Source: Deltaproteobacteria bacterium (GTDB lineage: Bacteria > UBA10199 > JADFYH01). From it: 64,000 bases of DNA. Shown piece by piece: positions 2,251 to 27,250 of this stretch (its first letter is position 1; every line of letters starts with the position of its first letter). The notes under the pieces were generated by a model. That model ran no database searches. It saw only the letters and a program-made list of their open reading frames with translations, and was not told where the DNA came from. The DNA is taken from positions 27,930 through 91,929 of the forward strand of contig JADFYH010000001.1 of NCBI GenBank assembly GCA_015233135.1, given 5' to 3'. The position numbers were made by a program, and so were the translations under genes.

Positions 2251-2255
2251 AAAAT

Positions 2256-5468: not shown

Positions 5469-5520
5469 GCGAAGACTCCCTAAACCTAGAAAAACAGGTT
5501 CAAATGCATTTTTCCCAGGG

Positions 5521-5646
5521 CAAGGGACTGAAATTGTTCCAGATTGAGGCGGAAGTCCATTCACCCGAAAGGAGACGTAGCCCAAGCTACGTTGACTGAC
5601 GGGGGAATGGCTCCCAACGAAAAGCTGGGGCAATTGCAGTCCCTTG
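5521..5646. repeat. Structured ~120 nt repeat element, copy 2 (family A), between ccmB and ccmC
   Basis: About 90% identical to 454-570. Closing stem AAGGGACTG...CAGTCCCTT. Inner hairpin loop changed (AGAC to CCAA) with the stem preserved. Confidence 0.6.
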
Positions 5647-5649
5647 TTG

Positions 5650-6324: not shown

Positions 6325-7004
6325 ACAGGCACCCCGTCATAGCTGATTGTTCCGTCTGAAATCACCAACAATCGATGTGCATGCTGCTTCGCATGACGAG
6401 GGTCATGGCTCGAGAGGAGAATGGTCTTCCCCTGCTTTTGCCAATCCTGAATCAGGCCATCCAAGATTTGTCGGCCTTCATCGTCCAGGGTGGGGTGGGG
6501 CTCATCCAAAAGGTAGAGATCGGTTTTAGATTGTTGCAGCAGGAGTCTTGCGAGCACCACGCGTTTTTTATTTCCTTCGGACAATTGGCTGATACGACGG
6601 TGTTCGTAAGGCTGAATTTTCAATTTTTCCAACAACTTTTGAATTTCCATATCCACTGTAGAGGAAGGAATTCCCAAAAGGGTGGCCACCAGTCTTAAAT
6701 TTTCGCGAACGGTCAGGATATCGTAGAGTTGTTTTTCGTGACCCAAAAAACGAATTCGAGGTCGGATCTGAGCACGGTCCTCCTGCGCATCCAGACCCAA
6801 CACCTTGATGCTCCCTGTCGAATGCGAGAGCAAGGTCGCAATGAGTTTGATAAAAGTGGATTTACCGGACCCGTTTTTACCAAAAAGGGCAACGGTCTCA
6901 CCTTGAGGAATGCTCACATTGAGGCGACTTAAAACCCAACTCCGGCCATAGCGCTTTCCAGCCTCCAGCATCTCGATGGCATTCGGCTTTGCAGAAGACA
7001 TCAA
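6321..7004 (-). CDS. ccmA: Heme exporter ATP-binding protein CcmA
   Basis: Walker A GKNGSGKST, ABC signature LSEGNKKR, Walker B LYLLDEP. Confidence 0.85.
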   Translation of the reverse strand: MMSSAKPNAIEMLEAGKRYGRSWVLSRLNVSIPQGETVALFGKNGSGKSTFIKLIATLLSHSTGSIKVLGLDAQEDRAQIRPRIRFLGHEKQLYDILTVRENLRLVATLLGIPSSTVDMEIQKLLEKLKIQPYEHRRISQLSEGNKKRVVLARLLLQQSKTDLYLLDEPHPTLDDEGRQILDGLIQDWQKQGKTILLSSHDPRHAKQHAHRLLVISDGTISYDGVPV

Positions 7005-8254
7005 TCCCTCTCTTTTAGTGATGACTTCTTCTCATAACGAAGTTCTCCTGTTAGGACCCCAGTAGTTACTTTTGCAATCACAGTAAACATCAAAGCCCCT
7101 ATCGCGGCAATACCTAAGCACAAAACGACTTCGTCTAAATTTGGATAATACTCGGAAATCTCACCCAAAGGCGTGGGAATAAATCCGGGAATCACAAGGC
7201 CCATCCCCTTCTCTATCCACAGGCCTAAAATACACAGATGACAAGCAATCAGGAAAAGAACTTGATTGTTTCGGAACTGCTTAAAACTCACCAGCAACGC
7301 AGCAATAACATTCATGATCGTTGCCGGCCAGATAAACCAGATCAACAGGTGATGCCCTTTTAAACCAAAATAGAGATATTGGGCCGAGGCTGCATGCAGA
7401 GTTCCAGGATAGAGCTCCTTAAAAATTTCACACAAGAGGAGAAAAAGATTAATGGGCAGGGTCACTCGCATCACACTTTTCAAATAATCAAAGACCGTGC
7501 TCTTCACCGCTAGCTTCGTGTGGTAATTGACGGCAAGAAAAACTAAATAAAAAATTGCAGGGCCCACTGAAAAGGCGCTGATTATAAAACGGGGGGCCAG
7601 GATGGCTGTATTCCAAAAATAACGTGATCCTAAACCGGAAAGGAGAAAGGCCTCAGAAACCTGGATGCCAATCGCAAAGAACATCAAAACAAAAATAAGG
7701 GGATAGTATAAGTACCATTTTGTCTGCCGACCCATGTATCTCATATACAGAAGGTAGGCGGGGACATACAGGTTCAGGACAAAATAAATGTTAATGACCA
7801 CCACATCCCAAGCTAAAATAGAGCTGGGAAGATTTAAATGCCCTCCCATGAATGGGATCATGTGCAAGAAACGCTCGGGACGTCCAATATCGGTGATAAT
7901 GAAAAGAAGACACATGACAATGGCTGTAAATGCAAGCTGTTGCGCAAGAAGGACCACCTCTTTAATATCTTGATTACGATTAATATAGGCAGGAAAAACC
8001 AAAATGACCGCCGAGGCCGCCACGCCCACAAAATAGACAAAATTGGCAATCCCCAAGCCCCAGCTGACTTGATCCGACATATGAGTGACGATCAGCCCCT
8101 CAACCAATTGATGGTAGTAAAGCAGCCCTCCCCACCCAATCAAAGCCACAAGAAAACCCACCCAGAGGTAATAGAGCTTTCCCCCCTTAATGGCAAACCG
8201 GAACATCGATAACCAATAATTTAAATAGTTCCGCATAGTTCTCTTTCTCCTCAA
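7001..8254 (-). CDS. NrfD/PsrC-family polytopic membrane subunit (quinone-interacting)
   Basis: 417 aa with about 10 hydrophobic helices, translationally coupled to the FeS protein and ccmA. Confidence 0.65.
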   Translation of the reverse strand: MRRKRTMRNYLNYWLSMFRFAIKGGKLYYLWVGFLVALIGWGGLLYYHQLVEGLIVTHMSDQVSWGLGIANFVYFVGVAASAVILVFPAYINRNQDIKEVVLLAQQLAFTAIVMCLLFIITDIGRPERFLHMIPFMGGHLNLPSSILAWDVVVINIYFVLNLYVPAYLLYMRYMGRQTKWYLYYPLIFVLMFFAIGIQVSEAFLLSGLGSRYFWNTAILAPRFIISAFSVGPAIFYLVFLAVNYHTKLAVKSTVFDYLKSVMRVTLPINLFLLLCEIFKELYPGTLHAASAQYLYFGLKGHHLLIWFIWPATIMNVIAALLVSFKQFRNNQVLFLIACHLCILGLWIEKGMGLVIPGFIPTPLGEISEYYPNLDEVVLCLGIAAIGALMFTVIAKVTTGVLTGELRYEKKSSLKERD

Positions 8255-9288
8255 TCAAAAAAGTAATAGAATTGGGGCCTTGTATTCAGTTCTTCCTTCA
8301 AAACATAAACTCGCTTATGCTTCAAAATCTGAGACACTTCACTGTTCGGATCACGCAAATTTCCAAACTTCCGCGCCCCGGTTGGGCAGGCCTCAAGACA
8401 GGCCGGGTATTTTCCATTACGCGTTCTATGCAAGCAGAAAGTACATTTCTCCACCACGCCCTTCATCCGGATACGATTACTCAAATAGGATTGATTCGGA
8501 TTAATTTGATCGGCAGGAATACTCGGCTTGGTGAAGTTGAAGTGGCGGGCTTCGTAAGGACAAGCTGCCATACAGTAACGACAACCAATGCACCAATTGT
8601 AGTCAACCACCACGATTCCATCTGCTTCCTTCCAGGTAGCCTCCACCGGACAGGCCCTTACGCAAGGTGGATTACGACAATGCTGACATTGAACAGGGAG
8701 ATAAAACTTATCTTTCCGGGGAACCTCGGGAGGGTTGTAGTAACGGTCTCCTTCTACCAAATCAAAACTACCCGCCTCCATTTCTAAAACCGTGATGTAC
8801 TGGATCGCTGGATCCCGTGACTGATTGTTCTCCTTTACACAGGCCTCGACACATTTTCGATTTCCATTGCATCGGGTCAGACTTAGAAAATACGCAAATT
8901 CAACCTCTGGAATCGGAGGAGGATCCGTGATGGTCACATCCACCCCATAGGCAGCCTTCGTTTCATGCTCGATCCGTTTAAAAATTGCTTCCTTGTCCTT
9001 CGGGGTCAGCTCTTTGTAATGCTTCTGAAAAAACTCTGCGAAGGTAAAGGCCTCGGCCGGTTTTGAGCCTGCCAAAACTGCCGCTCCAGCTGCTGCGCCA
9101 GCTCCCTGGATAAAGGATCGTCGGGAAAACATTTTTCCAAAAAACCGATCTGTCAAAGCCTGAATTCTCTTCGTCGCTCTCTTCGGATTTGCGTTTTCAG
9201 AACTTTTCTCAGCGCTTGAGAAATTCTTAAAAAAACGCCCCATCCAGGCACGGAGTTTTGATCGTTCGGAATCCATCGGAGCACTCAT
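8251..9288 (-). CDS. Tat-exported 4Fe-4S ferredoxin-type subunit (NrfC/PsrB/HybA-like)
   Basis: Twin-arginine motif SRRSFIQGAGAAAGA; four Cys clusters CxxCxxCxxxCP (e.g. CQHCRNPPCVRACP, CIGCRYCMAACP). Confidence 0.8.
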   Translation of the reverse strand: MSAPMDSERSKLRAWMGRFFKNFSSAEKSSENANPKRATKRIQALTDRFFGKMFSRRSFIQGAGAAAGAAVLAGSKPAEAFTFAEFFQKHYKELTPKDKEAIFKRIEHETKAAYGVDVTITDPPPIPEVEFAYFLSLTRCNGNRKCVEACVKENNQSRDPAIQYITVLEMEAGSFDLVEGDRYYNPPEVPRKDKFYLPVQCQHCRNPPCVRACPVEATWKEADGIVVVDYNWCIGCRYCMAACPYEARHFNFTKPSIPADQINPNQSYLSNRIRMKGVVEKCTFCLHRTRNGKYPACLEACPTGARKFGNLRDPNSEVSQILKHKRVYVLKEELNTRPQFYYFFD

Positions 9289-9992
9289 CGAACTTCTCCT
9301 TCTTTTTGTTTCTGATCATGGAGCATCCAGGCAGGTTTCGGAGGTGGAGGCAGAGGCTTCATCGCTTCAACGTTGTAGGGACCATGGGGGTTATGACACT
9401 GGGTACAAAGATCAATCTTGCCTGCCCCATTCCACAGCCCTGTGCGGTGACCATGCATGTGAGCCTTCCAGTCATCCAGCTGAATGCCGTGACATTGTCC
9501 GCATATTCTGTAGGATTCGTTGAAGCTAACCAATTCACCCGAGTAAAGCCTGAGCTGATTGTATTGCCCTGGGTTATGGCAATTATGACACCAGTAATTT
9601 GGATCTTCCCGTACCCTTTGTTTCGGATGAATGGATGTGATGTTGAGATGCTCCTTCGTCAGCTGCCTTTTTTCCGTGTTGAAGTCTGTAGGAGCAGAAT
9701 GACACTCGGAACAAGGATACATCTCTATCGAGGGAGTCCTCTTAACTACCTCGTCGAGGTCCGAAATCTTCAGCTCTGTGAGAGCCAATTCTGAGAGCTG
9801 TAATTCCGAGAGTTTTGGTCCTGAGGGCTGTGATTCTGCGGGCTTTGATTCTGGGACCTGTGATGCCGGAGCAGGAGGAGCTGACTTTTTATTCACCGAC
9901 TTAGCCCCCCAGCTTTTCGACAGCGGACTAAAAATAAGAACTGAAACAAGCAGCACCCGAAAGAGTTTTCGATGACGACTCAACATGGACAT
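9285..9992 (-). CDS. Periplasmic tetraheme cytochrome c
   Basis: Signal peptide; four CxxCH motifs (CSECH, CHNCH, CGQCH, CTQCH); low-complexity LSELQLSELALTEL linker encoded by a degenerate tandem DNA repeat at about 9775-9870. Confidence 0.8.
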   Translation of the reverse strand: MSMLSRHRKLFRVLLVSVLIFSPLSKSWGAKSVNKKSAPPAPASQVPESKPAESQPSGPKLSELQLSELALTELKISDLDEVVKRTPSIEMYPCSECHSAPTDFNTEKRQLTKEHLNITSIHPKQRVREDPNYWCHNCHNPGQYNQLRLYSGELVSFNESYRICGQCHGIQLDDWKAHMHGHRTGLWNGAGKIDLCTQCHNPHGPYNVEAMKPLPPPPKPAWMLHDQKQKEGEVR

Positions 9993-10133
9993 CCCTTTTT
10001 TATTTTTCAGCGTTGCAGCTGAGAGACCCTGTAACTGCGGTCGCGCGAGTGACTAACATAACCTCAAACAGGATCTATGATCCGCATCATATTGCTCAGA
10101 TTATTTTTTTAGGCCAATTTCAAGGCAACGAAT

Positions 10134-10850
10134 ATGAATCCAAAAAAAATAACAAAAAAAAGTATTTCCTCTTTCTATCAACTTTTGGCCCCGGTCTTTG
10201 ATTTGCTGGACGGCTATTTCAGTTATGAGGTGAAGGGGCTTCAAAATATCTCTAAAAATAAAGCGGCCCTGCTCGTCATGAATCATGGAATCATTCCCTA
10301 CCATGGTTTTTTACTGGCCCGGCGATTGTATCGGGACGCCCATATTGCCCAGCGCAGCCTGGGAGCGGATTTCATTTTTGAGATCCCTTGTCTTCGAGAG
10401 CTTTTCATGGCGGGGGGCGCTCTTCCTGCAAGCCCCGAAAATGCCAGGAGGCTCTTGAAGGAAGGCCATCTGGTAACCCTTGCTCCAGGCGGAATTTACG
10501 AATCTTTGGTCACCCAGCCCGGGATGAAAAGAATTCCCTGGGAGCGGCATTTCGGATTTGCCAAACTTGCCTGTGAGCTTGGGGTGCCCGTCATTCCCAG
10601 CTATGCCCGGGGAATTGATCGGGTCTATTGGAATTCCAATTTTCTTTTGAGGATGCGGATCAAGATTTTGGAAAAGACACGATTTTCCATCCCTCTCTTT
10701 TTTGGATTGGGATTATTGCCCCTTCCCACACCCATCACTCATCGGATTGGAAAAGCCCTCTTTCCTCCTTCAGGAAAAGTAACTCGAAAAAAAGTCACCC
10801 AATTTCATACCCGAGTCCTTCGAGCGATGCAGAAGTTGAGAGACCAGTAA
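10134..10850 (+). CDS. Putative acyltransferase (lysophospholipid acyltransferase-like)
   Basis: LLVMNHGIIPYHG ... TLAPGGIYES pattern resembling PlsC-type acyltransferases; divergent from the cytochrome operon. Confidence 0.4.
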   Translation: MNPKKITKKSISSFYQLLAPVFDLLDGYFSYEVKGLQNISKNKAALLVMNHGIIPYHGFLLARRLYRDAHIAQRSLGADFIFEIPCLRELFMAGGALPASPENARRLLKEGHLVTLAPGGIYESLVTQPGMKRIPWERHFGFAKLACELGVPVIPSYARGIDRVYWNSNFLLRMRIKILEKTRFSIPLFFGLGLLPLPTPITHRIGKALFPPSGKVTRKKVTQFHTRVLRAMQKLRDQ

Positions 10851-10868: not shown

Positions 10869-12104
10869 TCACTTTCCACTCGGAAAAAAATGTTTCGGCT
10901 CTGCAGGCTCCCATCCTCCGTGATGGCCTTTTTCGTAATATTTAGCTAGGGTGTCACGGGCGAGAGGGGTTCCAATATTTTCCAAGGCCCCGGCAATCAC
11001 ACTCACCATGGCAGGATCATGCTGGTTCAGCACTCGTTCCATCAGGGGAATGGCCTTTTCACTCTTGAGTTGCCCCAGGCAAGAGAAGGAATACATCCGC
11101 ACATAATAGCGTTTGTCCTGGCTGTATTTTAAACAAAGTTCTTCGGCCTTTGCTCCCCCCAAATCCCCCAAGGCCTCCAAAATCGAAGCGGTCTCTTTGT
11201 CGTCCGACCAGCTATTCAAGCGCGTTTCAAAAAGAGGAAGGGTATCCAGACGTCTATGCCGAGCTAAAATGGAGAGCAGAGCTGCTTGTAAATTGGGGCT
11301 AAGCTGTGAAAGCAACTTTGAATATTCGGTATAACTGAGCCCTTGTTGCGCAGCTTCCAAACGCTCCGCGCTTTGCAGACACACGGCATCCGGGCTCACG
11401 CAGACAAACTTTTTTAAAATCTGAAACTGTGTAGCCGAGGGATGGGCCGTAAAATATTTGACCAAGCTCAACTTGGCCCCCTCTGAAAAACCCTGTTTTA
11501 AAACCAGGAGGGAGAGTTTTTCCATCTCTTCTGAGTTCAAATCAAAGCCAGGCGAACGTTCAAAAAAACGCGCCAGATCTTCCTGAAGCCTTGCGGAAGC
11601 AGTTTGAAGCAAGGTCGAAAGTAAAATTTCTTTTTTCTTATTTTTTGCCTCGGATGAATCTTGATCGAGATAAGGCAAATAAGATTTGAGGAACTCCTGA
11701 TAAGCCTGTTGATCAGCGCTCTGAAGCAAGACAGATCCCTGTTTAAAGGCAGGGCTATAAACAACGCCCTTTTGAATGAGGGTTTGATAGGCCGAATATT
11801 TGGGGAGATCCTTCAAAAAAATCAGGATGGGCGTGTTGGGCGAAAACACCGAAACCGATTGGGGAAAAAGCGTTTCTTCAAAGAGAAGAATCTTTCCGCC
11901 TGCAATATTTCCACGAAAAAATTGCAGGGTTTTCAATTGGACTACATTTCCCTGAGGATTTTTTTCATGAGCCGTCACAGCCTCCACTTGGGCAGAAACA
12001 ATGTAGGGAGAACGCAGAAGGTCTTCAAAGCTGGGGGCTTGGGCAAAAAGAGAAAGAGGAAATAAAAAGAGGATGAGAAAAAATATTTTTTTCATGTGTC
12101 GCAA
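10869..12104 (-). CDS. Secreted HEAT/ARM-repeat protein, function unknown
   Basis: Signal peptide MKKIFFLILFLFPLSLFAQA; C-terminal HEAT-like repeats; 10 nt downstream of sat. Confidence 0.35.
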   Translation of the reverse strand: MRHMKKIFFLILFLFPLSLFAQAPSFEDLLRSPYIVSAQVEAVTAHEKNPQGNVVQLKTLQFFRGNIAGGKILLFEETLFPQSVSVFSPNTPILIFLKDLPKYSAYQTLIQKGVVYSPAFKQGSVLLQSADQQAYQEFLKSYLPYLDQDSSEAKNKKKEILLSTLLQTASARLQEDLARFFERSPGFDLNSEEMEKLSLLVLKQGFSEGAKLSLVKYFTAHPSATQFQILKKFVCVSPDAVCLQSAERLEAAQQGLSYTEYSKLLSQLSPNLQAALLSILARHRRLDTLPLFETRLNSWSDDKETASILEALGDLGGAKAEELCLKYSQDKRYYVRMYSFSCLGQLKSEKAIPLMERVLNQHDPAMVSVIAGALENIGTPLARDTLAKYYEKGHHGGWEPAEPKHFFPSGK

Positions 12105-12114: not shown

Positions 12115-13314
12115 CTATTTCCTCATCGACTCAATCAAAATCCTCGCCACTTCAGGCCGTGAAAACTCAGGCGGTGGCAATTCCCCTTTGGAGAGTAGCT
12201 CTCGCACCTTGGTTCCCGAAAGCGCCACATGATTTTCTTTGTCATGAGGACAAGTCTTGGTCGAGGCCATGCCTTCGCATTTCTTGCAGTAGAAAGTATG
12301 GTCAAAAAACAGGGGAGTAATTGCCAATTCTTCTTTGTTAAAATTCTCAAAAATGAAATGCGCGTCAAAAGTGCCGTAGTAATTTCCCACACCGGCATGA
12401 TCGCGACCGACGATGAAATGCGAGCAGCCATAATTTTGACGGATTAAGGCATGGAAGATTGCCTCGCGAGGCCCCGCATAGCGCATCGCTGCGGGATTAA
12501 CGGCAAGTTGAGTACGGTTGGCAGGATAATAATTTTCAATGAGTTTTTCGTAGCATTTCATCCGCACCTCGGCCGGAATGTCGTCGCTCTTGGTGTCCCC
12601 CACGAGAGGATGGATGAGGAGTCCATCCACAATCTCCAAGGCACATTTGGTGAGATATTCGTGGGCGCGATGGATGGGATTACGCGTTTGAAAACCCACC
12701 ACGCGCTTCCATTTCTTTTCTGCAAATAAAGCGCGAAGTTGTGCGGGATCCAAACGGTATTGTAAAAAATGATCGTATTGAACTCGGTTGAGAACAGAGA
12801 CTTTCCCCGCCAAATACACTTCGCCTTGAGCATAAACCGCGGCAACACCCGGATGGGCGCCCTCTTCAGTTTTATAAACCTTTAAGGCCTCGTTTTTTTT
12901 ATTGGGTTCAAATTTTTCTTGGAGATGAAGAATAGCAAGAATTTCTCCCTCTGCCGAAAAAGCCCCCTCTCCCTTGAGGGGAGAGGGTTGGGGTGAGGGT
13001 GAAAACAACGCAATATCCTTCCCAATCTCATATTTTGCCGAATCTTCTTTTTTCACCGCCAGGGTAATAGGAATGGTCCACGCCAAACCATTCAAGAGCC
13101 GCATCTTTTCCACGACATTCTCATATTCCTTTTGGCCCATGAAGCCTTCCAGAGGAGAAAGCGCCCCACAGGCAATCATATCCAGATCACTCCTTTCGCG
13201 GGAATTGAGGACGATTTTGGGAAGTGCAGAAACTTGAGTGAGGGCTTTTTCTCTTTCGCTTCCAGTCAGGATACGAGAAATTAATTTTCCACCGTGTGGG
13301 GCTATCGCTGGCAT
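12115..13314 (-). CDS. sat: Sulfate adenylyltransferase (ATP sulfurylase)
   Basis: VGFQTRNPIHRAHE (QTRN and HxxH motifs) and GRDHAGVG motif; carries an in-frame repeat insertion (SPSPQPSPLKGEGAFSAEGE). Confidence 0.9.
   Translation of the reverse strand: MPAIAPHGGKLISRILTGSEREKALTQVSALPKIVLNSRERSDLDMIACGALSPLEGFMGQKEYENVVEKMRLLNGLAWTIPITLAVKKEDSAKYEIGKDIALFSPSPQPSPLKGEGAFSAEGEILAILHLQEKFEPNKKNEALKVYKTEEGAHPGVAAVYAQGEVYLAGKVSVLNRVQYDHFLQYRLDPAQLRALFAEKKWKRVVGFQTRNPIHRAHEYLTKCALEIVDGLLIHPLVGDTKSDDIPAEVRMKCYEKLIENYYPANRTQLAVNPAAMRYAGPREAIFHALIRQNYGCSHFIVGRDHAGVGNYYGTFDAHFIFENFNKEELAITPLFFDHTFYCKKCEGMASTKTCPHDKENHVALSGTKVRELLSKGELPPPEFSRPEVARILIESMRK
12962..13003. repeat. GC-rich palindromic repeat unit (family B) in-frame inside sat
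   Basis: ccccctctcccttgaggggagagggttggggtgagggtg; the same unit recurs at 22916, 31516, 35078, 36457 and as arms of the 16011, 18631 and 27084 elements. Confidence 0.7.
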
Positions 13315-13415: not shown

Positions 13416-14534
13416 CTATCCCTTCAACTTCCTCCTCAAATTCGAAATCCCCAAAGCAGCCGTTCGTCCCAAGGCGGTATGGTAAAAATTCTTCATGGCA
13501 ACTTGCAGGCGGGACTTTCCGCCCACAAAATGGCGACCTTCCAGAGGGGTAAGTACCACATCAATTTGACGGATCCAGTTGGTAGAGAGTTTTTTGGCAC
13601 TTACTTTTTCGTAGAGGTAGGCATAGAGAGAAACAATTTCTTTGAGCTCCAAATTCCAACGCGCAGCAAGTTCGCTGTTCTCTTGAGGGGGAAAATAAGT
13701 AAGTAAGGGGAGCACACCCAAATCGGTAAGCACGTCTATGCCTTTTTGGGTAGAGGCATAGGGTTCCAGGCCGATTACCAAATGCGAGGTCACTGCACCA
13801 CCGGGAAACACCTTCACCGCATATTCCAGGGCCTCAAGGTATCTTTTTTGACGAATTCTTTTTTCTTTTTCGGGGTAGGTTTTGGCAAAGAGTTCGGGAT
13901 CAAACACGTCCAGGTCGTAATACACCATATCGGTACCCGCCGCATAAGTACGGTCTATCCAGGAATTTTTAGCCGGCGGCATAACGTCTGCTGAAATCAG
14001 CAAATTGAAGCGTTCACGAATTTTTTTAATAAGGGGTTCCAGCGTCTTCATTCCCCCATCTTCGGAAGTGGAAAAACCGGAAGAAATATGAATCATCTCG
14101 GCAGTGGCATGCTCCATCACCTTTTCCAGAGCTTCCAGGAAATCCTCATCCGTGTAAGGCGTTCCTTCCGGAACCGCCTTGCTGCCGCAATATTTACAAT
14201 CAAAACCGGATTTTGCAAAACGGCAAGGCCCCCGCGGAGCCGCTACCAGAAAGGCCCCGTGGGAGTGAAGGATGTCATGGATGAGATGCCCCGACTGGAC
14301 GCGCTCATCAAAGACGGGAGGACGCATCAATAATTTGACTTTGAGGGATTGATCTCGAAATTTCAGCTCAAACTCATTATTTGTTTCGACAACCTGATAA
14401 GAAGATTTTTCTTTTTGTGAAACCGTCACCCAGGTATTTTCAGGAAGGATGAGAATAATATCGTCATCCCAACCGGGCAAAGGTTGTATGCCTTGGGCAA
14501 AGAGATCAAGTTTGAGGAGGCCGATGTTGAGCAT
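13416..14534 (-). CDS. Conserved hypothetical protein with Cys-x9-Cys-x2-Cys motif (possible Fe-S / radical-SAM-like TIM barrel)
   Basis: 372 aa; PRGPCRFAKSGFDCKYCGS motif; lies between the MNT/HEPN pair and sat in the sulfur operon. Confidence 0.3.
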   Translation of the reverse strand: MLNIGLLKLDLFAQGIQPLPGWDDDIILILPENTWVTVSQKEKSSYQVVETNNEFELKFRDQSLKVKLLMRPPVFDERVQSGHLIHDILHSHGAFLVAAPRGPCRFAKSGFDCKYCGSKAVPEGTPYTDEDFLEALEKVMEHATAEMIHISSGFSTSEDGGMKTLEPLIKKIRERFNLLISADVMPPAKNSWIDRTYAAGTDMVYYDLDVFDPELFAKTYPEKEKRIRQKRYLEALEYAVKVFPGGAVTSHLVIGLEPYASTQKGIDVLTDLGVLPLLTYFPPQENSELAARWNLELKEIVSLYAYLYEKVSAKKLSTNWIRQIDVVLTPLEGRHFVGGKSRLQVAMKNFYHTALGRTAALGISNLRRKLKG

Positions 14535-14537
14535 GGG

Positions 14538-14930
14538 TTAGGGTTCTATTTTTTGAATCAGAATACTTAATGAATGGACAAATTTTTTCGCCGTCTCATA
14601 CACCTCATCCGCCACCATCACATTATAGGTGTGCGCTGTATTATTTCGATAAGAAAGATACTCAAACCATTGCTCTAATTCGGTTTCATCAATCCAACCC
14701 ACTTGAACGGAATCTCTAAACACTTGTTTAGGGCTAGGAGACAAGACTGCTTCCAACTCCAAGGCACGCTTTAAAATCTTCCAAGTCAATTCTAAACAAT
14801 ACTCAAAACGTTTGATCACTGAATCACGAACAAAAGAAGAGTAAGGTTGAGCTAAGGCTTCCTCTAAAGTGCATAAAGCTTGCTTCAACTGACTTAATCG
14901 AAGAGCGAATTGTTCTTCTTTTTCTTCCAT
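14538..14930 (-). CDS. HEPN-domain protein, HI0074 family (putative toxin of HEPN/MNT pair)
   Basis: YRNNTAHTYN (Rx4HxY HEPN motif); 37-nt overlap with the upstream nucleotidyltransferase gene. Confidence 0.75.
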   Translation of the reverse strand: MEEKEEQFALRLSQLKQALCTLEEALAQPYSSFVRDSVIKRFEYCLELTWKILKRALELEAVLSPSPKQVFRDSVQVGWIDETELEQWFEYLSYRNNTAHTYNVMVADEVYETAKKFVHSLSILIQKIEP

Positions 14931-15226
14931 ATCTGTACTTCCTTAAGAGCATAGGCTTTAAAATTCTCATCCACTTTTGAAAAATCGACCAAATCAATTT
15001 TTTGGGCGATGGGAAAGGCCTCTAATTGTTCACGCAAATTTGAAATTTCCAAATTGGACAAAATTTCCTCAGTAAAAAATCCAATATCATAATCGGAGAA
15101 TTTTTTTACCGAGTCGGCATGAGCCCGTGAACCAAACAAAAAAATATCGGCATCTTTCTCTTTAAAGAAATTGAGAATCTGCTTTTTGAGAAACTCTTTT
15201 ACTTCAGAAAAAGACTGCCAATTCAC
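14894..15226 (-). CDS. Minimal nucleotidyltransferase (MNT, HI0073 family; putative antitoxin)
   Basis: [22 protein letters not shown] (GS...DxD pol-beta NTase motif). Confidence 0.75.
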
Positions 15227-15501
15227 TTTCCACCCGCAATGGCAGGCACAATTGACAACTCATCGCCCGCTTTAAGAGGAGTAGCATCACTTTGCAGAAA
15301 GCGGATGTCTTCTTCATTCACATAAAAATTGACGAAGCGACGGAGACTTCCTTTTTCGTCGCAGAGACGATTATAAATTCCGGGATAGGCTTTCTCCAGG
15401 TTTTGGAGGGCTTCTTTGACGGTGCCTGCCTGTATTTGAACTTCACCCTGGTTTTGGGTGAGCTTTTGTAGGGGAGTGGGGATGCGTACTTTGACTGACA
15501 T
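15223..15501 (-). CDS. MoaD/ThiS-family sulfur-carrier protein with C-terminal GG-K
   Basis: 92 aa beta-grasp-like; ends ...VPAIAGGK; start chosen at MSVKVRI with AAGGAG RBS 7 nt upstream; adjacent to a JAMM protease. Confidence 0.65.
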
Positions 15502-15514
15502 GGTTTTCTCCTTC

Positions 15515-15988
15515 TTAAAGAGTGCGTAAACGAAATTTTTTCTCGCTATAATCCTTCTTCTCATCCTCCCAACTAAACAAGCTAGCCGCGACCGCCTTGC
15601 CTTCGCGGACGGAAACTACCACCCAATGTAAATTGGGATTATTAGGTTCGCCCCAAGGACCTGCCATCAATTTGTCTTCTTCAGAAAAATATACCTCATG
15701 ATCAGGGTGCGAATGGTAGATGACTTTAAACTCAAAGTCTTTGTCCGCAGCTTCTCTTTCGACAATGCTCACATCCTTAGGATCCATGTAGTAAGCATTT
15801 TTGCTGGTGCGCGAATACTTTTCAGGATCCTGGGCATGCAGTTCATCCTGAATATTTTTAATGGGAAAAAGCCCAATGGCATTGTGATGTTCTTTAGGGC
15901 CAATGAGAATCCCGCAGGCCTCACTGGGATAGGCCTTTTCGGTTTGAAGACAGATTTGTTTTAAAACGTATTCGGAAATAAAGGGCAT
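15515..15988 (-). CDS. JAMM/MPN+ metalloprotease (Mec+/HcyD-like)
   Basis: Canonical JAMM motif E...[14 protein letters not shown] (HxHx7Sx2D). Confidence 0.85.
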
Positions 15989-16010
15989 AGATATAGATAG
16001 CTTCTTTACT

Positions 16011-16108
16011 TCCCCCTCTTAAGCTAAGAGGGGGTTAGGGGGCGTTATGACCAATTGAATGCGATTGAACCATAACCCCTCCTACCTCCCCTTAGCTTAA
16101 GGGGAGGA
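16011..16108. repeat. Palindromic GC-rich miniature element (family B, full two-armed copy)
   Basis: ccccctcttaagctaagaggggg ttagggggcgttatgacc ... ggtcataacccctcc ... ccccttagcttaaggggagg; intergenic between the JAMM gene and the cysteine synthase gene. Confidence 0.7.
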
Positions 16109-16115
16109 AAGGTCA

Positions 16116-16997
16116 TTACAAATACCTCTCCCCTGAATCACAAAAAATCGTCACAATCACTCCTTCTTTTATTTGTTTTGCAATCTGATAGGCCCCCAGC
16201 AAATTGGCTCCTGCCGAGTGTCCCACCAGCATCCCTTCTTTTTTCGCCAGCGCTTCGCATAAGTCCCAAGCAGGTTCAGTGGCGATGGACAGTTTTTGGT
16301 CGTGCTCTGCTTCTTTGTATATTCCCGGCACAATCGAAGTAGGCATATGCTTCAAACCTTCCAAGCCATGGAGTGCATCTTCGGGTTCTACCGCAATCAC
16401 TTGAATCTTTGGATTGTAGGCCTTGAGCCGACGACCCGTTCCCATCAAGGTGCCACTGGTTCCTATCCCTGCCACAAAATGAGTGACACGACCTTGCGTT
16501 TGATTCCAGATTTCTAGCCCTGTCGTATCGTAATGCGCCTGAGGATTAAAGGGGTTGTTGTATTGATCGGGACAAAAATATTTATCCGGATTTTCTTTTT
16601 TTAATTTCTGCGCCAGGCGAATGGCCCCATCCGAGCCTTCCATCTCTGACGAAAAAGTCAGCTTGGCCCCGTAACTGAGGGCCACGGCTTTTCGCCGCGG
16701 GCTTACATTTCCAGGAACCACCAACTCCACCGGATAACCCAAGGCTGCACCAATCATCGCCAAGGCAATCCCGGTGTTTCCACTGGTGGGATCCATAATG
16801 ATTTTCCCTGGTCTGAGTTGGCCAGATTTTATTCCTTCCATCACCATACGCGCCGCAGGCCTGTCTTTGATGGAACCTCCGGGATTATAAAACTCCAGCT
16901 TCGCGTAAATTTCCACTTTGGGAAGTTCTTTTTCAAAGAATCGTACACGGTAGAGGGGGGTGTTGCCGATTAAGTCTAACATACCAACTTTGTTCAT
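16116..16997 (-). CDS. Cysteine synthase family PLP enzyme (CysK/CysM-like)
   Basis: GSIKDRPA PLP-lysine motif, SGNTGIALA glycine loop. Confidence 0.85.
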   Translation of the reverse strand: MNKVGMLDLIGNTPLYRVRFFEKELPKVEIYAKLEFYNPGGSIKDRPAARMVMEGIKSGQLRPGKIIMDPTSGNTGIALAMIGAALGYPVELVVPGNVSPRRKAVALSYGAKLTFSSEMEGSDGAIRLAQKLKKENPDKYFCPDQYNNPFNPQAHYDTTGLEIWNQTQGRVTHFVAGIGTSGTLMGTGRRLKAYNPKIQVIAVEPEDALHGLEGLKHMPTSIVPGIYKEAEHDQKLSIATEPAWDLCEALAKKEGMLVGHSAGANLLGAYQIAKQIKEGVIVTIFCDSGERYL

Positions 16998-17043
16998 AAT
17001 ATTTTAAACTTCGTTGCAGAAATTCTCTTTATGCAATGAAGCA

Positions 17044-17295
17044 CTATCCCGCCATCACATCCATATCTACAGGCTCAACACCTACTCCACGCGATTCAAA
17101 ATATTTAATCGCTTCTTCAATTCTTTCAGCTGTCCCTTCTAATTCCAGACCAATCAAACCAATTTCTTGCGTGACGGATGCCGTGCGAACATTGAAGCGA
17201 ACTTTATATTTATCGTACATGTCGCAGATGACGGCCTCAGTGGTTTTTGCTTTCGGGAAAGTAAGATAGATTTTTTTCTTAATATTGTTGGACAT
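17044..17295 (-). CDS. Small ACT/NIL-like domain protein
   Basis: About 83 aa MSNNIKKKIYLTFPK...; beta-alpha-beta pattern typical of small ligand-binding domains; start uncertain (three candidate Met). Confidence 0.35.
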   Translation of the reverse strand: MSNNIKKKIYLTFPKAKTTEAVICDMYDKYKVRFNVRTASVTQEIGLIGLELEGTAERIEEAIKYFESRGVGVEPVDMDVMAG

Positions 17296-17370
17296 AAATA
17301 TTTGATGGTTCGACAGGCTCACCATGTCCCCACGTGGGACACCCTGAGGCTCTCGAAGGGTCAACTCCGT

Positions 17371-18606
17371 TTATTTCTTCATCTGTCCCACCACTGCATC
17401 AAAATCGGCCAGCTTGGCATTAATCACGGTAGGGGCACCTACAAAATCGGCCACCGCTTCCTGGGTCTTCAAACCATTTCCAGTCACACACACCACTACC
17501 GATTCGTCTTTGGGAATTTTGCCTTGCTCAATCAATTTCTTGGCGGCCCCCAGGGTAACACCGCCCGCAGTCTCAGTAAAAATCCCAGTGGTTTCTGCTA
17601 GCAGTTTGATGGCTTCCACAATTTCGGGATCACTCACATCTTCGGCCCAGCCCCCCGTTTCTTTCATTGAACCCATGGCGTAAAACCCATCGGCAGGGTT
17701 ACCAATGGCCAGAGACTTCGCAATGGTGTTGGGTTTCACGGGTTTGAACAATTCCCAATCATTTTTGAGTGCGGTCGAAATGGGTGAACAACCCGTGGCC
17801 TGCCCCCCAAACACCTTACAGTTTGGCGCTTCAATCAAGCCCATCTTATGAAACTCTTTCATGGCCTTGTGGATTTTGGTGAGCAGAGAACCCGAGGCCA
17901 TCGGCACCACCACATTTTGGGGGGCCTTCCAACCCAATTGTTCCATGGTTTCGTAAAACAAACTCTTGGAACCTTCGGCATAAAAAGGACGGATATTAAT
18001 ATTCACAAAGGCCCATTTGTATTTCGCGGCAATCTCGCTGCACAGACGATTCACTTCATCGTAGGTGCCGCGGATACCGACCACATTTCCGCCAAACACC
18101 AGGGTTCCCAAAATCTTGCCAGCTTCCAGATCGTGGGGAATAAACACGTAGCTTTTAAGCCCTGCCCCGGCGGCATTGGCGGCGACCGAATTGGCGAGAT
18201 TCCCCGTGGAAGCGCAGGCAACGGTTTCAAATCCAAATTCCTTGGCCTTGGACAAAGCCACCGAAACGACGCGATCTTTGAAAGAAAGCGTAGGATAAGA
18301 AACCGCGTCATTTTTTATATAAAGTTCTTTCACACCCAATATCTTAGCCAGGCGATCGGCTTTTACGAGAGGTGTAAAACCGACATCACGACCCACCGTG
18401 GGCTCGCCATCAATCGGAAGCAGCTCGCGATAACGCCACATGTTTTTGGCGCGACTTTCAATTTTTTTGCGAGAGATATCTTTTTTGATTTCCTCGTAGT
18501 TGTAGTCCACTTCGAGCGGACCAAAACAGTATTCACACACATGCGTGGGAGTGACGGGATAAAGCTGGCCGCATTCGCGACATTTTAGGCCTTTGACGTA
18601 GGACAT
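17371..18606 (-). CDS. Threonine synthase-like PLP enzyme with N-terminal zinc ribbon
   Basis: CRECG...CEYC ribbon; SFKDR PLP-lysine motif; ThrC fold-type II; first gene after a SAM riboswitch. Confidence 0.8.
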   Translation of the reverse strand: MSYVKGLKCRECGQLYPVTPTHVCEYCFGPLEVDYNYEEIKKDISRKKIESRAKNMWRYRELLPIDGEPTVGRDVGFTPLVKADRLAKILGVKELYIKNDAVSYPTLSFKDRVVSVALSKAKEFGFETVACASTGNLANSVAANAAGAGLKSYVFIPHDLEAGKILGTLVFGGNVVGIRGTYDEVNRLCSEIAAKYKWAFVNINIRPFYAEGSKSLFYETMEQLGWKAPQNVVVPMASGSLLTKIHKAMKEFHKMGLIEAPNCKVFGGQATGCSPISTALKNDWELFKPVKPNTIAKSLAIGNPADGFYAMGSMKETGGWAEDVSDPEIVEAIKLLAETTGIFTETAGGVTLGAAKKLIEQGKIPKDESVVVCVTGNGLKTQEAVADFVGAPTVINAKLADFDAVVGQMKK

Positions 18607-18630
18607 TATTAAACACCTTCAGTTCATACT

Positions 18631-18732
18631 CCCCCTCTTAGGCTAAGAGGGGGTCAGGGGGCGTTATGGCAATTGGATTCAAAGTGACCATAAACCCTCC
18701 TAACCCCCTTCTTAGCTTCAAGAGAAGGGAAA
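18631..18732. repeat. Palindromic GC-rich miniature element (family B, full copy) in the 5' leader of the thrC-like gene
   Basis: ccccctcttaggctaagagggggtcagggggcgttatggc ... gaccataaaccctcctaaccccc ttcttagcttcaagagaaggg. Confidence 0.7.
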
Positions 18733-18754
18733 ATTAATTCATTCCCCCATTTTC

Positions 18755-18932
18755 ACGAAAAAAAACCCCTTCTTGGGTGATCTGTTCCAGAATCATTCAA
18801 GAAGAGGTTTTATACCGCTCTCTCCTTATCTACCCCGATTCTTCGGGATGGAATTAGCACCCGTCGAATTTTCAAATTCCGGGTTGCTGCAGGATCATCG
18901 GGCCATTTCCCTCACCTGCTCTGGATAAGACG
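18755..18932 (-). ncRNA. SAM-I (S-box) riboswitch with intrinsic terminator
   Basis: Minus-strand RNA: UCUUAUCCAGAGCAGGUGAGGGAAAUGGCCCGAUGAUCCUGCAGCAACC...GGUGCUAAUUCC...GAUAAGGAGA (P1 UCUUAUC/GAUAAGA), matching the S-box consensus. Followed by CCUCUUCUUG...CAAGAAGGGG hairpin plus U8 at 18753-18805. Confidence 0.8.
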
Positions 18933-19363
18933 CTCAAGTCTTTCACGTGTATTCGATGCGCGAAGCACTTGTCAAGAGGGCACTTTTGAGTTTTAAGGAT
19001 TTATGGATGGTAAAGATGAGTTCTTAAGCCCTGTGAGACAAGGCCTTGGAGAGACGCTGAGAAAAATTCTGGATGACATCTACTTTGGATTTTATTTGTT
19101 GCACCAAATCTCCCTCGCTGGGACCGGACTTCTTCTGCACCTGGGACAAAAAACGCAACACAATCTCTCGATCCGACAGGTTGTAACCCGCCTCGAGAAA
19201 CCTGTTTTTAATCAGATTGAGAGGTTCTTGGCGCTGCATGGCCCATTTATCGCCATAAAATCGATAATTTTGCACCCATTTTTTTAAGCACCCTTGATCA
19301 TTCTTAAAAAACTGTTATAGGCGCTATACTTATTCGCTCATCTTTAACATTAAGGAGTTTTCG

Positions 19364-19978
19364 ATGTCTTCGTTTTCAGAACCCAAAGCAAAAAATCTCA
19401 CCTGGCACCCAGGCAAACTCAGCAGTGGTCAACGAATTGAAAAACTTGGACAGAAAGGCGCTGTCCTTTGGTTGACGGGCCTTTCCGCCTCTGGAAAATC
19501 CACTGTCGCTCGCGAAGTGGAGCTGGCCCTGGTCGAAAACAGTAAAAATGCCTATGTGCTGGATGGAGACAATATTCGTCAGGGATTAAACTCAAATTTG
19601 GGATTTTCTCCCGAAGACCGCAAGGAAAACATCCGTCGAATTGGCGAAGTGGCCAAGCTTTTTTCCGAGGCCAATGTCATTACCCTTACCGCCTTCATTT
19701 CCCCTTATCAGGCCGACCGAGACCTGGCCCGAAAACTGGTGCCTGCCGGACAATTTTTTGAAATTTATTGCGCAGCCAGTGTGGAAGAATGTGAAGACCG
19801 CGACCCCAAAGGCCTGTATAAAAAGGCTAGAGCCGGAGAGATTAAAGAATTTACTGGAGTCTCTGCCCCTTACGAAGCCCCCGAAAAACCTGAATTGATT
19901 TTATACACCGGCAAGGAAACTCTGGAAGAAAGTACCAAAAAAGTGCTGGCTTTGCTGCAGGAGAAGGGGATTATTTAA
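19364..19978 (+). CDS. cysC: Adenylylsulfate (APS) kinase
   Basis: P-loop GLSASGKST, 204 aa, typical APS kinase length and motifs. Confidence 0.9.
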   Translation: MSSFSEPKAKNLTWHPGKLSSGQRIEKLGQKGAVLWLTGLSASGKSTVAREVELALVENSKNAYVLDGDNIRQGLNSNLGFSPEDRKENIRRIGEVAKLFSEANVITLTAFISPYQADRDLARKLVPAGQFFEIYCAASVEECEDRDPKGLYKKARAGEIKEFTGVSAPYEAPEKPELILYTGKETLEESTKKVLALLQEKGII

Positions 19979-19992: not shown

Positions 19993-20748
19993 ATGGACAT
20001 CACTCCACAACTCCTCACCACCCTCGAAAAAATCTCCGATCCCAAAGATCTACTGAAGGAGATCTTCAGCCGCTTTGGAAATCGAGCCGCCATCGGAACC
20101 AGCGGACAGCTCACCGGATCGGTCCTGATTGACATGGCCTGCCAGACTGGGCTCAAACCTCGCATCTTCACCCTCGATACCCTCCGGCTTTTTCCGGAGA
20201 CCTACGAACTTTTTTCCGAGGTCGAAAAAAAATACGGGATTCAAATCGAAAAAGTCCACCCCGATCCCACAAAACTATCAGAAATGATTCGTGAGCATGG
20301 GGAGTATCTCTTTTTTGACAGTAAAGAAAAACAGGAACTCTGCTGTAACATCCGCAAAGTGGAACCCAACGAAAAAATGCTAGAGACCTTGGACGTATGG
20401 ATTACCGGTTTAAGAGCCGATCAATCCAGAGCCCGAGCGAGCACCGCAAAATTTGAAATTCAATCGCGTGGAGAAAACAAGCCTCCCCTTCTGAAAGTGG
20501 CCCCTTTGGTAGATTGGACGGAGAAGCAACTCCGCAACTATGCCACGCAACATCAAGTGCCCGTTCATCCATTACTCAACTGGAATCACGAAGGCTGGTA
20601 TTACGAATCGTTAGGCTGCATTTTATGCACCACCCCCATCGGACCCAACGAAGCCCGCCGTGCAGGGCGTTGGCGCTGGTTTAATGCGCTGGATCCAAAT
20701 GCAAACAAGGAATGTGGTCTGCATGGGCTGAAAAAAATCGGGAGATGA
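19993..20748 (+). CDS. cysH: Phosphoadenosine phosphosulfate (PAPS/APS) reductase
   Basis: PAPS reductase fold with C-terminal KECGLH motif. Confidence 0.85.
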   Translation: MDITPQLLTTLEKISDPKDLLKEIFSRFGNRAAIGTSGQLTGSVLIDMACQTGLKPRIFTLDTLRLFPETYELFSEVEKKYGIQIEKVHPDPTKLSEMIREHGEYLFFDSKEKQELCCNIRKVEPNEKMLETLDVWITGLRADQSRARASTAKFEIQSRGENKPPLLKVAPLVDWTEKQLRNYATQHQVPVHPLLNWNHEGWYYESLGCILCTTPIGPNEARRAGRWRWFNALDPNANKECGLHGLKKIGR

Positions 20749-27013: not shown

Positions 27014-27250
27014 TTCCCTCTCCCTTGAGGCATAGGTATCTACACATCTCAGCAAACTATTGGTTTTATTGACTCTGCTGTTCCTCCCCTTAAGCTAAGG
27101 GGAGGTTAGGAGGGGTTATGGAAGATCTTGCTGAACTCAAAAATACTGTAATTTGCACGGTTTTCCATAACTCCCCCAACCCCCTCTTAGCTTAAGAGGG
27201 GGCAATACCAAAAGATGTGTAGATACCTATGCCCTTGAGGGGAGGGGAAA
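27014..27250. repeat. About 240-bp near-perfect palindromic miniature element (family B core with long terminal inverted repeats)
   Basis: ccctctcccttgaggcataggtatctacacatct (27014-27050) mirrored by agatgtgtagatacctatgcccttgaggggagggg (27213-27250); core two-hairpin unit at 27084-27203. Confidence 0.75.

Follow-up and report, generated by a model that had tools for sequence, protein, structure and literature searches.

Known thiocarboxylate-dependent systems and the locus studied

In Streptomyces albulus, MetM, a homologue of threonine synthase (ThrC), makes homocysteine from O-phosphohomoserine by means of the thiocarboxylated carrier MetO (Hasebe et al. 2024, Appl Environ Microbiol 90:e01247-24, as described in PMC12172450 and bioRxiv 10.1101/2024.10.14.618325). 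The same sources name Mec and MoeZ as the helper protease and E1 of the MetM/MetO pair, place an S-adenosylmethionine (SAM) riboswitch upstream of metM (PMC12172450), and state that MetM is often misannotated as threonine synthase (the GapMind preprint, bioRxiv 10.1101/2024.10.14.618325). Mycobacterium tuberculosis CysM uses O-phosphoserine and the carrier CysO (PMC12910592). Here, we describe a stretch of 64,000 nucleotides, called the window throughout (contig JADFYH010000001.1 of GCA_015233135.1, positions 27,930 to 91,929), in which a SAM-I riboswitch leads a minus-strand string of genes that includes a ThrC-like enzyme, a CysM-like enzyme, a JAMM protease, and a ThiS-family sulfur carrier. 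We consider it likely, by analogy with the systems above, that this is a SAM-repressed sulfur amino acid operon acting via a protein thiocarboxylate.

A further system comes from Wolinella succinogenes, for which Krishnamoorthy and Begley reportedly described in 2011 a thiocarboxylate-dependent methionine pathway made up of HcyS, HcyD, HcyF, and MetY (cited in PMC5764234). The carrier HcyS is said to bear a C-terminal extension that is removed by a JAMM protease and to donate sulfur for homocysteine as a thiocarboxylate, its genes being linked to sulfate assimilation; the homocysteine-forming enzyme MetY is reportedly of fold-type I and acts on O-acetylhomoserine. The window likewise has a ThiS-like carrier with a C-terminal extension, a JAMM protease, and linked sulfate assimilation genes, but in place of MetY it encodes a ThrC homologue, which is of fold-type II and whose substrate is presumably O-phosphohomoserine. 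Family profile searches of the nine operon proteins found no MetY-type or other pyridoxal 5'-phosphate (PLP) enzyme family beyond PALP, and there is no HcyF-type E1 in the operon. The parallel to HcyS/MetY that had been drawn in an earlier reading of the letters alone (the sequence-only reading) thus does not hold, as no MetY-type enzyme is present.

The order on the minus strand is ThrC-like, NIL, CysM-like, JAMM, ThiS, MNT, HEPN, variant radical SAM, sat, and HEAT-repeat, with intergenic gaps of -37 to 127 nt; a simple terminator scan, confined to loops of 3 to 8 nt, found no terminator-like site in these gaps. The features of the operon and its divergent neighbors are as follows.

18823..18931, minus strand: SAM-I aptamer (S-box), identified by RF00162, the minimum free energy (MFE) fold, and homologous riboswitches in relatives.
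18758..18810, minus strand: intrinsic terminator of the expression platform, identified by folding; its 5' arm alternatively pairs with the P1 3' strand at 18822-18831.
17371..18606, minus strand: MetM-like candidate, a ThrC-family PLP enzyme (PALP, 227 bits; TIGR00260, 278 bits).
17044..17295, minus strand: free-standing NIL-domain protein of 83 amino acids (aa) (PF09383, 50 bits).
16116..16997, minus strand: CysM-like, fold-type II PLP enzyme (PALP, 232 bits; TIGR01138 cysM, 362 bits, below its cut-off of 394).
15515..15988, minus strand: JAMM/MPN+ metalloprotease, Mec/HcyD-like (Prok-JAB, 69 bits).
15223..15501, minus strand: CysO/MetO-type ThiS-family sulfur carrier (PF02597, 59 bits).
14894..15226, minus strand: MNT nucleotidyltransferase (Polbeta/NTP_transf_2; MntA model, 40 bits, below its cut-off of 60).
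14538..14930, minus strand: HEPN protein of the HI0074-type nucleotidyltransferase (NTase) substrate-binding family, with an RNNTAH motif (PF08780, 99 bits; TIGR01987, 87 bits, cut-off 55.8).
13416..14534, minus strand: variant radical SAM protein, Cx8CxxC (NF045502, 149 bits, cut-off 125; PF04055, 36.9 bits, cut-off 29.5).
12115..13314, minus strand: sat, ATP sulfurylase (PF01747, 338 bits; PUA_2, 175 bits; NF003166, 563 bits).
10869..12104, minus strand: HEAT-repeat protein, 10 nt downstream of sat, with a hydrophobic, signal-peptide-like N terminus (HEAT_2, 42 bits).
19364..19978, plus strand: cysC, adenosine 5'-phosphosulfate (APS) kinase (PF01583, 226 bits).
19993..20748, plus strand: cysH, 3'-phospho-APS (PAPS)/APS reductase (PF01507, 125 bits).

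Every gene named in the sequence-only reading is present, and family models support each, with matches to the PALP, NIL, Prok-JAB, and ThiS models among the operon proteins; the divergent cysC-cysH pair that it placed from 19364 was confirmed as well. Its small ACT/NIL-like and ThiS genes belong to the proposed families (PF09383 and PF02597), but the open reading frame (ORF) starts it used did not stand, as both genes most likely begin at internal ATGs that would give proteins of 83 and 92 aa, matching homologue sizes. Likewise, the gene it listed for an unknown Cys-motif protein is real, but the protein is no longer unknown, being a variant radical SAM protein. cysC is divergent from the operon and lies outside the riboswitch-controlled transcript, a layout also found in two of the related loci described below (L001 and L005).

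The window shares with the S. albulus system a ThrC homologue, a ThiS-family carrier in the operon, a SAM riboswitch upstream, and the threonine synthase label; a JAMM protease is encoded in the window operon, and the S. albulus system depends on Mec and MoeZ, according to the sources cited for it. It differs in that the carrier gene lies not beside the ThrC-like gene but after a CysM-JAB module, in that one carrier gene apparently serves two PLP enzymes, in that conserved NIL and variant radical SAM partners are present, in that sat is within the same transcript, and in its host, an uncultivated "Deltaproteobacteria"/UBA10199-like lineage. Given the MetM precedent, a SAM riboswitch ahead of a "threonine synthase" is no longer paradoxical. 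A thiocarboxylate carrier with two PLP enzymes under SAM control, as first proposed for this stretch, remains the best reading of the gene set, but it is not an undescribed paradigm, since MetM/MetO chemistry with a SAM riboswitch was published in 2024 (PMC12172450 and bioRxiv 10.1101/2024.10.14.618325). What was already known is the core chemistry of MetM/MetO and of CysO/CysM/Mec; what is new is that both branches are merged behind one riboswitch around the window's only carrier gene.

The SAM-I riboswitch and operon leader

The Rfam search gave a significant, full-length match to RF00162 (positions 1-108 of 108) at 18931..18823 on the minus strand, scoring 80.6 bits against a gathering score of 44.4 (E, 2.2e-17), and this aptamer is the sole Rfam match in the window. 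The MFE fold of the leader recovers the four-way junction of P1 to P4 and, beyond it, a 14-bp hairpin followed by U8 at 18810..18758 (z-score of -3.6 versus shuffles), which bears out the SAM-I aptamer and terminator first noticed by eye. When a partial transcript was folded only up to the 3' arm of the terminator hairpin, the 3' strand of P1 (AGAUAAGGAG, 18831..18822) paired with the terminator 5' arm to form a 9-bp antiterminator with a duplex energy of -10.6 kcal/mol. P1 with the terminator on one side and the antiterminator on the other are mutually exclusive, which is the classical S-box "off" design. The ThrC-like gene begins ~150 nt past the terminator. Upstream of the riboswitch, a simple sigma-70 promoter scan found no convincing promoter, only a TTGACA from 18975 (minus strand) without a good -10.

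Conservation of the riboswitch was followed in a set of related loci (L001, L002, and so on), which comprised the best 80 relatives of the ThrC-like protein plus four loci from protein look-ups; ORFs were called in each and searched with the window proteins. Denominators vary between features (83, 78, 74, or 59), the 78 used for ThiS being the loci with enough sequence. A covariance model built from seven Rfam-confirmed SAM riboswitches placed a SAM-I riboswitch before the ThrC-like gene, or before the PALP gene preceding it, in 52 of 83 loci.

The leader also holds one of three copies of a MITE/REP-like element of ~100 to 120 nt (18631-18729, minus; 16012-16107, minus; 27081-27203, plus), each flanked by two GC-rich palindromes (CCTCCCCTTAAGCTAAGGGGAGG ... 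CCCCCTCTTAGCTTAAGAGGGGG). The palindrome occurs three times in the window versus none expected by chance. One copy lies past the riboswitch terminator, ahead of the first start codon, and another between the CysM-like and JAB genes, where they might affect the stability or processing of the operon mRNA.

The ThrC-like enzyme and its relatives

The ThrC-like protein carries an N-terminal four-Cys zinc ribbon; C9, C12, C24, C27, and K110 are invariant, K110 being the PLP lysine (SFKDR) that was unchanged in 12 homologues. There are at least 595 relatives among species-representative genomes, those of anammox Planctomycetota included, and the best 80 of these share 63 to 83% identity with it. These 80 come from UBA10199-type "Deltaproteobacteria," Zetaproteobacteria, Verrucomicrobiota, Nitrospirota, Nitrospinota, Omnitrophota, Planctomycetota (including Brocadia), Thermodesulfobacteriota, and others.

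The neighborhood of the gene is strongly patterned. Downstream of it and in the same orientation, 71/78 loci have a ThiS-like gene, which is no more than 300 nt away in 58/78; a NIL gene follows in 50/74, and a ThiF/MoeB-type E1 gene in 19/59. The commonest order is ThrC-like, ThiS, NIL. The merged two-branch order around one carrier was found in 7/83 loci, plus L087, and the window-like arrangement MetM-NIL-CysM-JAB-ThiS-(radical SAM-DASS)-Sat occurs in L001, L002, L005, and L087, while L004 and L029 have the MetM-NIL-CysM-JAB-ThiS core with the radical SAM and DASS genes absent.

It could be argued that the protein is simply a housekeeping threonine synthase, with the riboswitch tuning flux through the O-phosphohomoserine branch and the ThiS and JAB proteins serving something else. 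Its TIGR00260 (thrC equivalog) score of 278 bits is well above the cut-off of 167, an identical (100%) public entry is named "MAG: threonine synthase [Deltaproteobacteria bacterium]" (MAG, metagenome-assembled genome), and no second thrC is visible in the window; the top 120 homologues in the database are uniformly close relatives whose names tell little. Nevertheless, we give this explanation almost no credence. The name carries over to MetM itself, which is often misannotated in this way according to bioRxiv 10.1101/2024.10.14.618325. The closest solved structures are true ThrCs, but they match at only 149 to 186 bits and cover just residues 57-406, and the window protein has the extra N-terminal zinc ribbon. 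A housekeeping role also fits poorly with the ThiS genes that follow and the riboswitches that precede the gene in so many loci. In seven Nitrospirota-type loci (L046, L083, L054, L058, L059, L076, and L079), a short second ThrC comes directly after the MetM-like/ThiS/NIL trio (L046, 11906-12967; L083, 4513-5601). The two short Nitrospirota proteins tested have 353 to 362 aa, score 325 to 331 bits with TIGR00260, and have no zinc ribbon. Since a canonical ThrC adjoins the orthologue in Nitrospirota, the ThrC-like family is not the housekeeping threonine synthase, and the "ordinary threonine synthase" that the sequence-only reading had allowed for is very unlikely. Judged by sequence and gene context, the family is a paralogue of threonine synthase with links to both a sulfur carrier and the sensing of SAM.

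In the Nitrospirota-type loci, two enzymes that would consume O-phosphohomoserine are thus encoded side by side.

The sulfur carrier, the JAMM protease, and the CysM-like enzyme

The window has no ThiS-like ORF other than that of the carrier, which ends in AIAGGK, with one residue to trim before the Gly-Gly is exposed. Its best solved match is M. tuberculosis CysO (3DWG_C; E, 9.4e-17), with residues 1-91 aligned to 1-93, and the next is 4N6E_B, a ThiS/MoaD-family protein that we take to come from a thiosugar pathway. In several related loci the carrier forms the N-terminal part of a fusion protein, always with AIAGG at the junction: ThiS::NIL in nine loci (L010, L017 at 11275-11790, L018, L024, L027, L028, L036, L068, and L080), ThiS::ThiF in two (L039 and L051), and ThiS::Sat in one (L006, 12986-14410; L006 is a complete MAG genome, and its ThrC-like protein shares 79% identity with that of the window). 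Of the unfused carriers in related loci, 32 end exactly at GG, and others have short tails such as the Lys of the window protein. Carriers that are fused or tailed would need a JAMM-type cut to free the Gly-Gly carboxylate, and a JAMM protease is already on record as cleaving a MoaD-MoaE fusion (cited in PMC11237513). The fusions also connect the carrier functionally with the E1, sulfate activation, and NIL.

The JAMM protease encoded beside the carrier has an intact catalytic motif, with the Glu in SEACG and HxH-x7-S-xx-D readable in the translation; it matches generic MPN proteins only. CysM-like and JAB genes adjoin in 9/9 related loci that carry both. This module resembles CysO-CysM-Mec of M. 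tuberculosis in the full-length alignment of the carrier to CysO and in the adjacency of a CysM-family enzyme and a JAMM protein, whereas it differs in lying inside a SAM-riboswitch operon with a homocysteine branch and in the one-residue C-terminal extension (GGK) of its carrier.

A number of observations weigh against a thiocarboxylate operon and are taken together here. The CysM-like enzyme, unlike what the parallel with M. tuberculosis would lead one to expect, is closer to Escherichia coli/Salmonella CysM (236 bits) than to M. tuberculosis CysM (3DWG_A, 178 bits), and in the alignment it ends ~20 to 23 residues short of the M. tuberculosis chain end; for these reasons we are less sure that it uses the carrier than we are for the MetM-like enzyme. 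No ThiF-type E1 was found in the window by tblastn with the operon-encoded E1s of two relatives, L017 and L012 (best E, 0.07), as the sequence-only reading had also noted, and the window likewise encodes no sulfite reductase, homoserine kinase, or methionine synthase. In 31 of 83 related loci no riboswitch was detected, some of these loci being truncated upstream. Assignment of the ThrC-like protein as a MetM orthologue rests on family, synteny, and regulation rather than on direct sequence comparison, and all the enzymatic steps are drawn from characterized homologous systems.

As for the E1, it is likewise absent within 10 kb in the close relatives of the same gene order (L001, L002, L005, and L087), whereas it lies inside the operon in L017, L018, L085, L086, and the Zetaproteobacteria; that of L017 was confirmed to be of the MoeB/MoeZ/UbaA type. 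Its absence from the window is not anomalous, then, because close relatives with the same operon are also without it. The E1 of the M. tuberculosis CysO/CysM pathway is encoded elsewhere in the genome, and the activator of the present system is most likely encoded elsewhere in its genome, too.

These points give some room to an explanation in which both PLP enzymes use free sulfide or thiosulfate and the ThiS and JAB proteins are a co-located SAMP/Urm1-like modifier or a carrier for a cofactor (molybdenum cofactor or a thio-cofactor). The top NCBIfam match of the carrier is in fact SAMP1, at 52.9 bits under the cut-off of 60, and the CysM-like protein resembles the sulfide/thiosulfate-using CysM of E. 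coli; the lack of an E1 in the window points the same way. We regard this explanation as unlikely. It leaves the closeness of ThiS to the MetM-like gene (58/78 loci within 300 nt, in many phyla) and the occurrence of ThiS::ThiF, ThiS::Sat, and ThiS::NIL fusions inside these very operons to coincidence, the structure closest to the carrier is that of CysO bound to CysM, and MetM/MetO was shown biochemically in Streptomyces (PMC12172450 and bioRxiv 10.1101/2024.10.14.618325).

The NIL-domain partner

The small NIL protein has no relative among solved structures by sequence search, and in the nine ThiS::NIL loci the domain is placed directly after the Gly-Gly of the carrier. Cysteine is not conserved in the free-standing NIL proteins, the window protein having one and that of L017 none; they are therefore less plausible as sulfur relays than as ligand sensors or adaptors. 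The Pfam NIL domain is best known from MetN, in which we take it to be the C-terminal C2 domain. Intracellular L-methionine binding to C2 closes the MetNI importer, in what is known as transinhibition (PMC6233128), which provides a model of NIL as a methionine sensor, although the window protein is not attached to an ATPase. A second parallel is the homocysteine pathway of methanogens and Desulfovibrio, in which the DUF39 protein MA1821 has the NIL-ferredoxin MA1822 as its partner (PMC5764234). There, too, a noncanonical homocysteine-forming enzyme has a genetically required or conserved partner with a NIL domain, but the window has neither a DUF39 protein nor a ferredoxin domain, and its NIL is free-standing or, in relatives, a C-terminal fusion to ThiS. 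Most likely, NIL is a regulatory or adaptor subunit that binds a small ligand of the methionine type. NIL is not mentioned regarding MetM/MetO in either PMC12172450 or bioRxiv 10.1101/2024.10.14.618325, and our literature search returned nothing specific joining the NIL domain, ThiS, JAB, and threonine synthase, or a SAM riboswitch and a sulfur carrier, beyond the papers cited here.

The variant radical SAM protein

The radical SAM protein has three cysteines only, in a Cx8CxxC arrangement (C104, C113, and C116) that is kept down to 32% identity and departs from the canonical CX3CX2C motif. Its AlphaFold2 (AF2) model has a predicted local distance difference test score (pLDDT) of 86.6; in Foldseek searches with it, the radical SAM core matched PylB, LipA, BioB, NifB, and MiaB generically (E, 1e-6 to 1e-4; TM about 0.43), and the beta-rich N-terminal domain (residues 1-98) had no match. 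Sulfur insertion of the LipA or BioB type is unlikely, because the protein is without the cysteines for an auxiliary cluster. The family is small: a word-indexed search returned 64 proteins, and among 1.84 billion there are 47 cluster representatives at an E of ≤1e-30 and 371 at ≤1e-10.

All the contexts of this family that we examined are thiocarboxylate or sulfate-assimilation clusters (ThiS/JAB/ThiF/Sat), and the gene is often adjacent or fused to that of a DASS transporter. In the four relatives with the window-like order, ThiS is followed by the radical SAM protein and a DASS symporter, with Sat further downstream. The order is JAB, ThiF, radical SAM, DASS, Usp, CysH, Sat in L017; PALP, JAB, ThiF, radical SAM in L085; and ThiF, MetM-like, ThiS, PALP, NIL, a ThiF fragment, radical SAM, Sat in L086. 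Zetaproteobacteria, Mariprofundus among them, have an 879-aa radical SAM::DASS (Na_sulph_symp) fusion with the radical SAM part N-terminal (L012, 16159-18798; also L009, L013, and L025), which in L012 and its relatives sits between a sulfite reductase::TusA-like fusion and cysH. No DASS transporter is in the window. Some close relatives (L004 and L006) do without the radical SAM gene. The protein looks like an accessory partner of thiocarboxylate/sulfate-assimilation clusters; as a guess, the pathway may be coupled through it to the uptake or reduction of sulfate or to SAM status.

A radical SAM enzyme without an assigned role, the thiosugar pathway of the second-best solved match of the carrier (4N6E_B), and the fact that ThiS/JAB/E1 cassettes serve such pathways elsewhere might also suggest that the cluster makes some other thiolated product, such as a thio-cofactor, a thio-sugar, or a siderophore of the thioquinolobactin kind. 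This is very unlikely in our view, given that SAM-I riboswitch control is conserved, that the PLP enzymes are of the ThrC and CysM families, that the cluster is linked to sat, cysC, and cysH, and that the operon holds no scaffold-building genes.

Neither NIL nor the variant radical SAM protein appears in the cited accounts of the MetM/MetO and CysO/CysM systems. It is possible, though we think it rather doubtful, that the free-standing NIL and the Cx8CxxC radical SAM protein are together real, undescribed components of the thiocarboxylate system. NIL would then be a methionine- or homocysteine-sensing cap or adaptor gating JAMM-dependent carrier maturation or MetM activity, and the radical SAM protein would supply a new step through which the loading of the carrier with sulfur is coupled to the uptake or reduction of sulfate or to SAM status.

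The MNT-HEPN pair

Between ThiS and the radical SAM gene, the window has an MNT-HEPN pair with the motifs GSx11DxD (GS...DYD) and Rx4H (RNNTAH) readable in the translations. A similar pair is present in none of the 59 related loci with enough downstream sequence, where otherwise collinear operons run directly from ThiS to the radical SAM gene. Its GC content (34% for MNT and 38% for HEPN) compares with 44 to 50% in neighboring genes. A paralogous HEPN-MNT pair in the opposite gene order lies beside the mutY-like gene (35643-36375, plus; HEPN, NTase_sub_bind, 122 bits), so that the window has two such pairs in 64 kb. The pair resembles HI0073/HI0074 and MntA/HepT (type VII) in its adjacent small MNT and HEPN genes and its motifs, but it lies inside a biosynthetic operon with overlapping or abutting frames, and the MntA and HepT equivalog models score under the cut-off of 60 (40 and 28.7 bits, respectively). 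It looks like an inserted toxin-antitoxin-type module that is co-transcribed with the operon and would not be part of the pathway.

Pure insertion is slightly weakened by L085, in which an MNT-HepT pair of a different subfamily (9528-10155) adjoins, downstream, a radical SAM homologue of 39% identity within a PALP-JAB-ThiF-radical SAM cluster. One could imagine, then, that MNT and HEPN are functional, either adenylylating the carrier C terminus in place of an E1 or working with the radical SAM protein. The pair does occupy the spot that a ThiF-type E1 has in L017 and L085, between the JAB/ThiS and radical SAM genes, and its genes overlap or abut their neighbors. A function in the pathway is highly improbable all the same, as the pair is missing even from near-identical operons, its GC content is 10 to 15 points under that of its neighbors, its paralogue sits beside mutY, and both its families and its motifs are of the toxin-antitoxin type; the L085 pair, moreover, is of another subfamily and on the other side of the radical SAM gene. 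For MNT as an E1 substitute, in particular, the absence in relatives, the low GC content, and the toxin-antitoxin-type families led us to judge it unlikely.

The juxtaposition in L085 is a second, independent one of MNT-HEPN and this rare radical SAM family, and it may be a coincidence or an unexplained link. The notion that such pairs are merely frequent in these loci finds no support, as a search with three pairs across 1.3 Mb of them recovered the L085 pair alone, although the window has two pairs in its 64 kb.

Proposed mechanism

The RNA element, the gene families, the conserved synteny, and the fusions can be seen directly in the DNA. From these and from the characterized homologous systems, a scheme can be put forward for the SAM-repressed thiocarboxylate operon. 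At high SAM, the ligand would bind the SAM-I aptamer, P1 would form, the terminator at 18810-18758 would fold, and transcription would stop. At low SAM, the P1 3' strand would pair with the terminator 5' arm, and the whole gene string would be transcribed. Sat and the divergently encoded CysC and CysH would start sulfate reduction, to be continued by an unlinked sulfite reductase. The JAMM protease would cut the C-terminal Lys off the CysO/MetO-like carrier and expose Gly-Gly, after which an unlinked MoeB/MoeZ/ThiF-type E1 would adenylate the carrier and sulfide would convert it to the thiocarboxylate.

The MetM-type ThrC-like enzyme would then replace the phosphate of O-phosphohomoserine with the carrier thiocarboxylate, leading to homocysteine, and the CysM-like enzyme would carry out the equivalent replacement on O-phosphoserine or O-acetylserine, at the beta position, leading to cysteine. 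Like Mec of M. tuberculosis, the JAMM protease would probably also cleave the adduct of carrier and amino acid to free the latter. The MNT-HEPN module would merely be transcribed along with the operon. That one carrier is shared by both PLP enzymes is something we infer, as are the roles given above to NIL and the radical SAM protein.

Other features of the window

The HEAT-repeat gene is possibly the final gene of the transcript and has no obvious role in the pathway; homologues in L005 and L001 are placed further downstream of sat. The Sat protein has 399 aa versus 384 to 389 in relatives, with an in-frame insertion of ~15 aa (SPSPQPSPLKGEG) that derives from a perfect-hairpin palindrome at 12965-12987. 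Palindromic or repeat DNA is found in frame in two further coding genes besides this part of sat, namely, mutY (34695-35554) and an amidotransferase gene (31116-31952). In the mutY-like ORF, it takes the form of a 146-nt repeat family with inverted arms that translates to RRETKDVK... and SHLxSHLxRLTS....

It is doubtful whether an 83-aa ORF at 19024-19275 (minus), which separates the riboswitch from the promoter region of the divergent cysC, is a gene; profile searches gave no family match, and it has no homologue in the related loci. At the equivalent position, L001 has DCC1-like and DUF4202 genes.

Further away, 612-9992 (minus) holds a cytochrome c maturation cluster (CcmA-H-like, with a thiol:disulfide oxidoreductase), followed by an NrfD-like membrane protein, a TAT-signal 4Fe-4S protein, and a multihaem cytochrome c. 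These look like a respiratory quinone-interacting complex, with no obvious link to the operon. A 1427-aa secreted protein with internal repeats is encoded at 36520-40803, and 41916-63793 contains sugar-nucleotide, glycosyltransferase, methyltransferase, transketolase-like, and flippase-like genes, is AT-richer by eye than the sulfur operon, and is probably an O-antigen or polysaccharide cluster.

Implications

Taken together, the locus presents a compact design in which one SAM riboswitch would turn off sulfate activation and the synthesis of both cysteine and homocysteine around a single carrier gene. Two of its members stand out as concrete leads. The first is the NIL partner, which is found in about two thirds of loci and is sometimes fused after the Gly-Gly of the carrier, and the second is the rare variant radical SAM protein, with its ties to DASS transporters. 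The very wide spread of the ThrC-like/ThiS/NIL cassette in uncultivated phyla is also a new point. The ThrC-like family is very widespread, and its member in the window is labelled threonine synthase in public records; reading it as MetM would alter reconstructions of methionine prototrophy in many uncultivated lineages.

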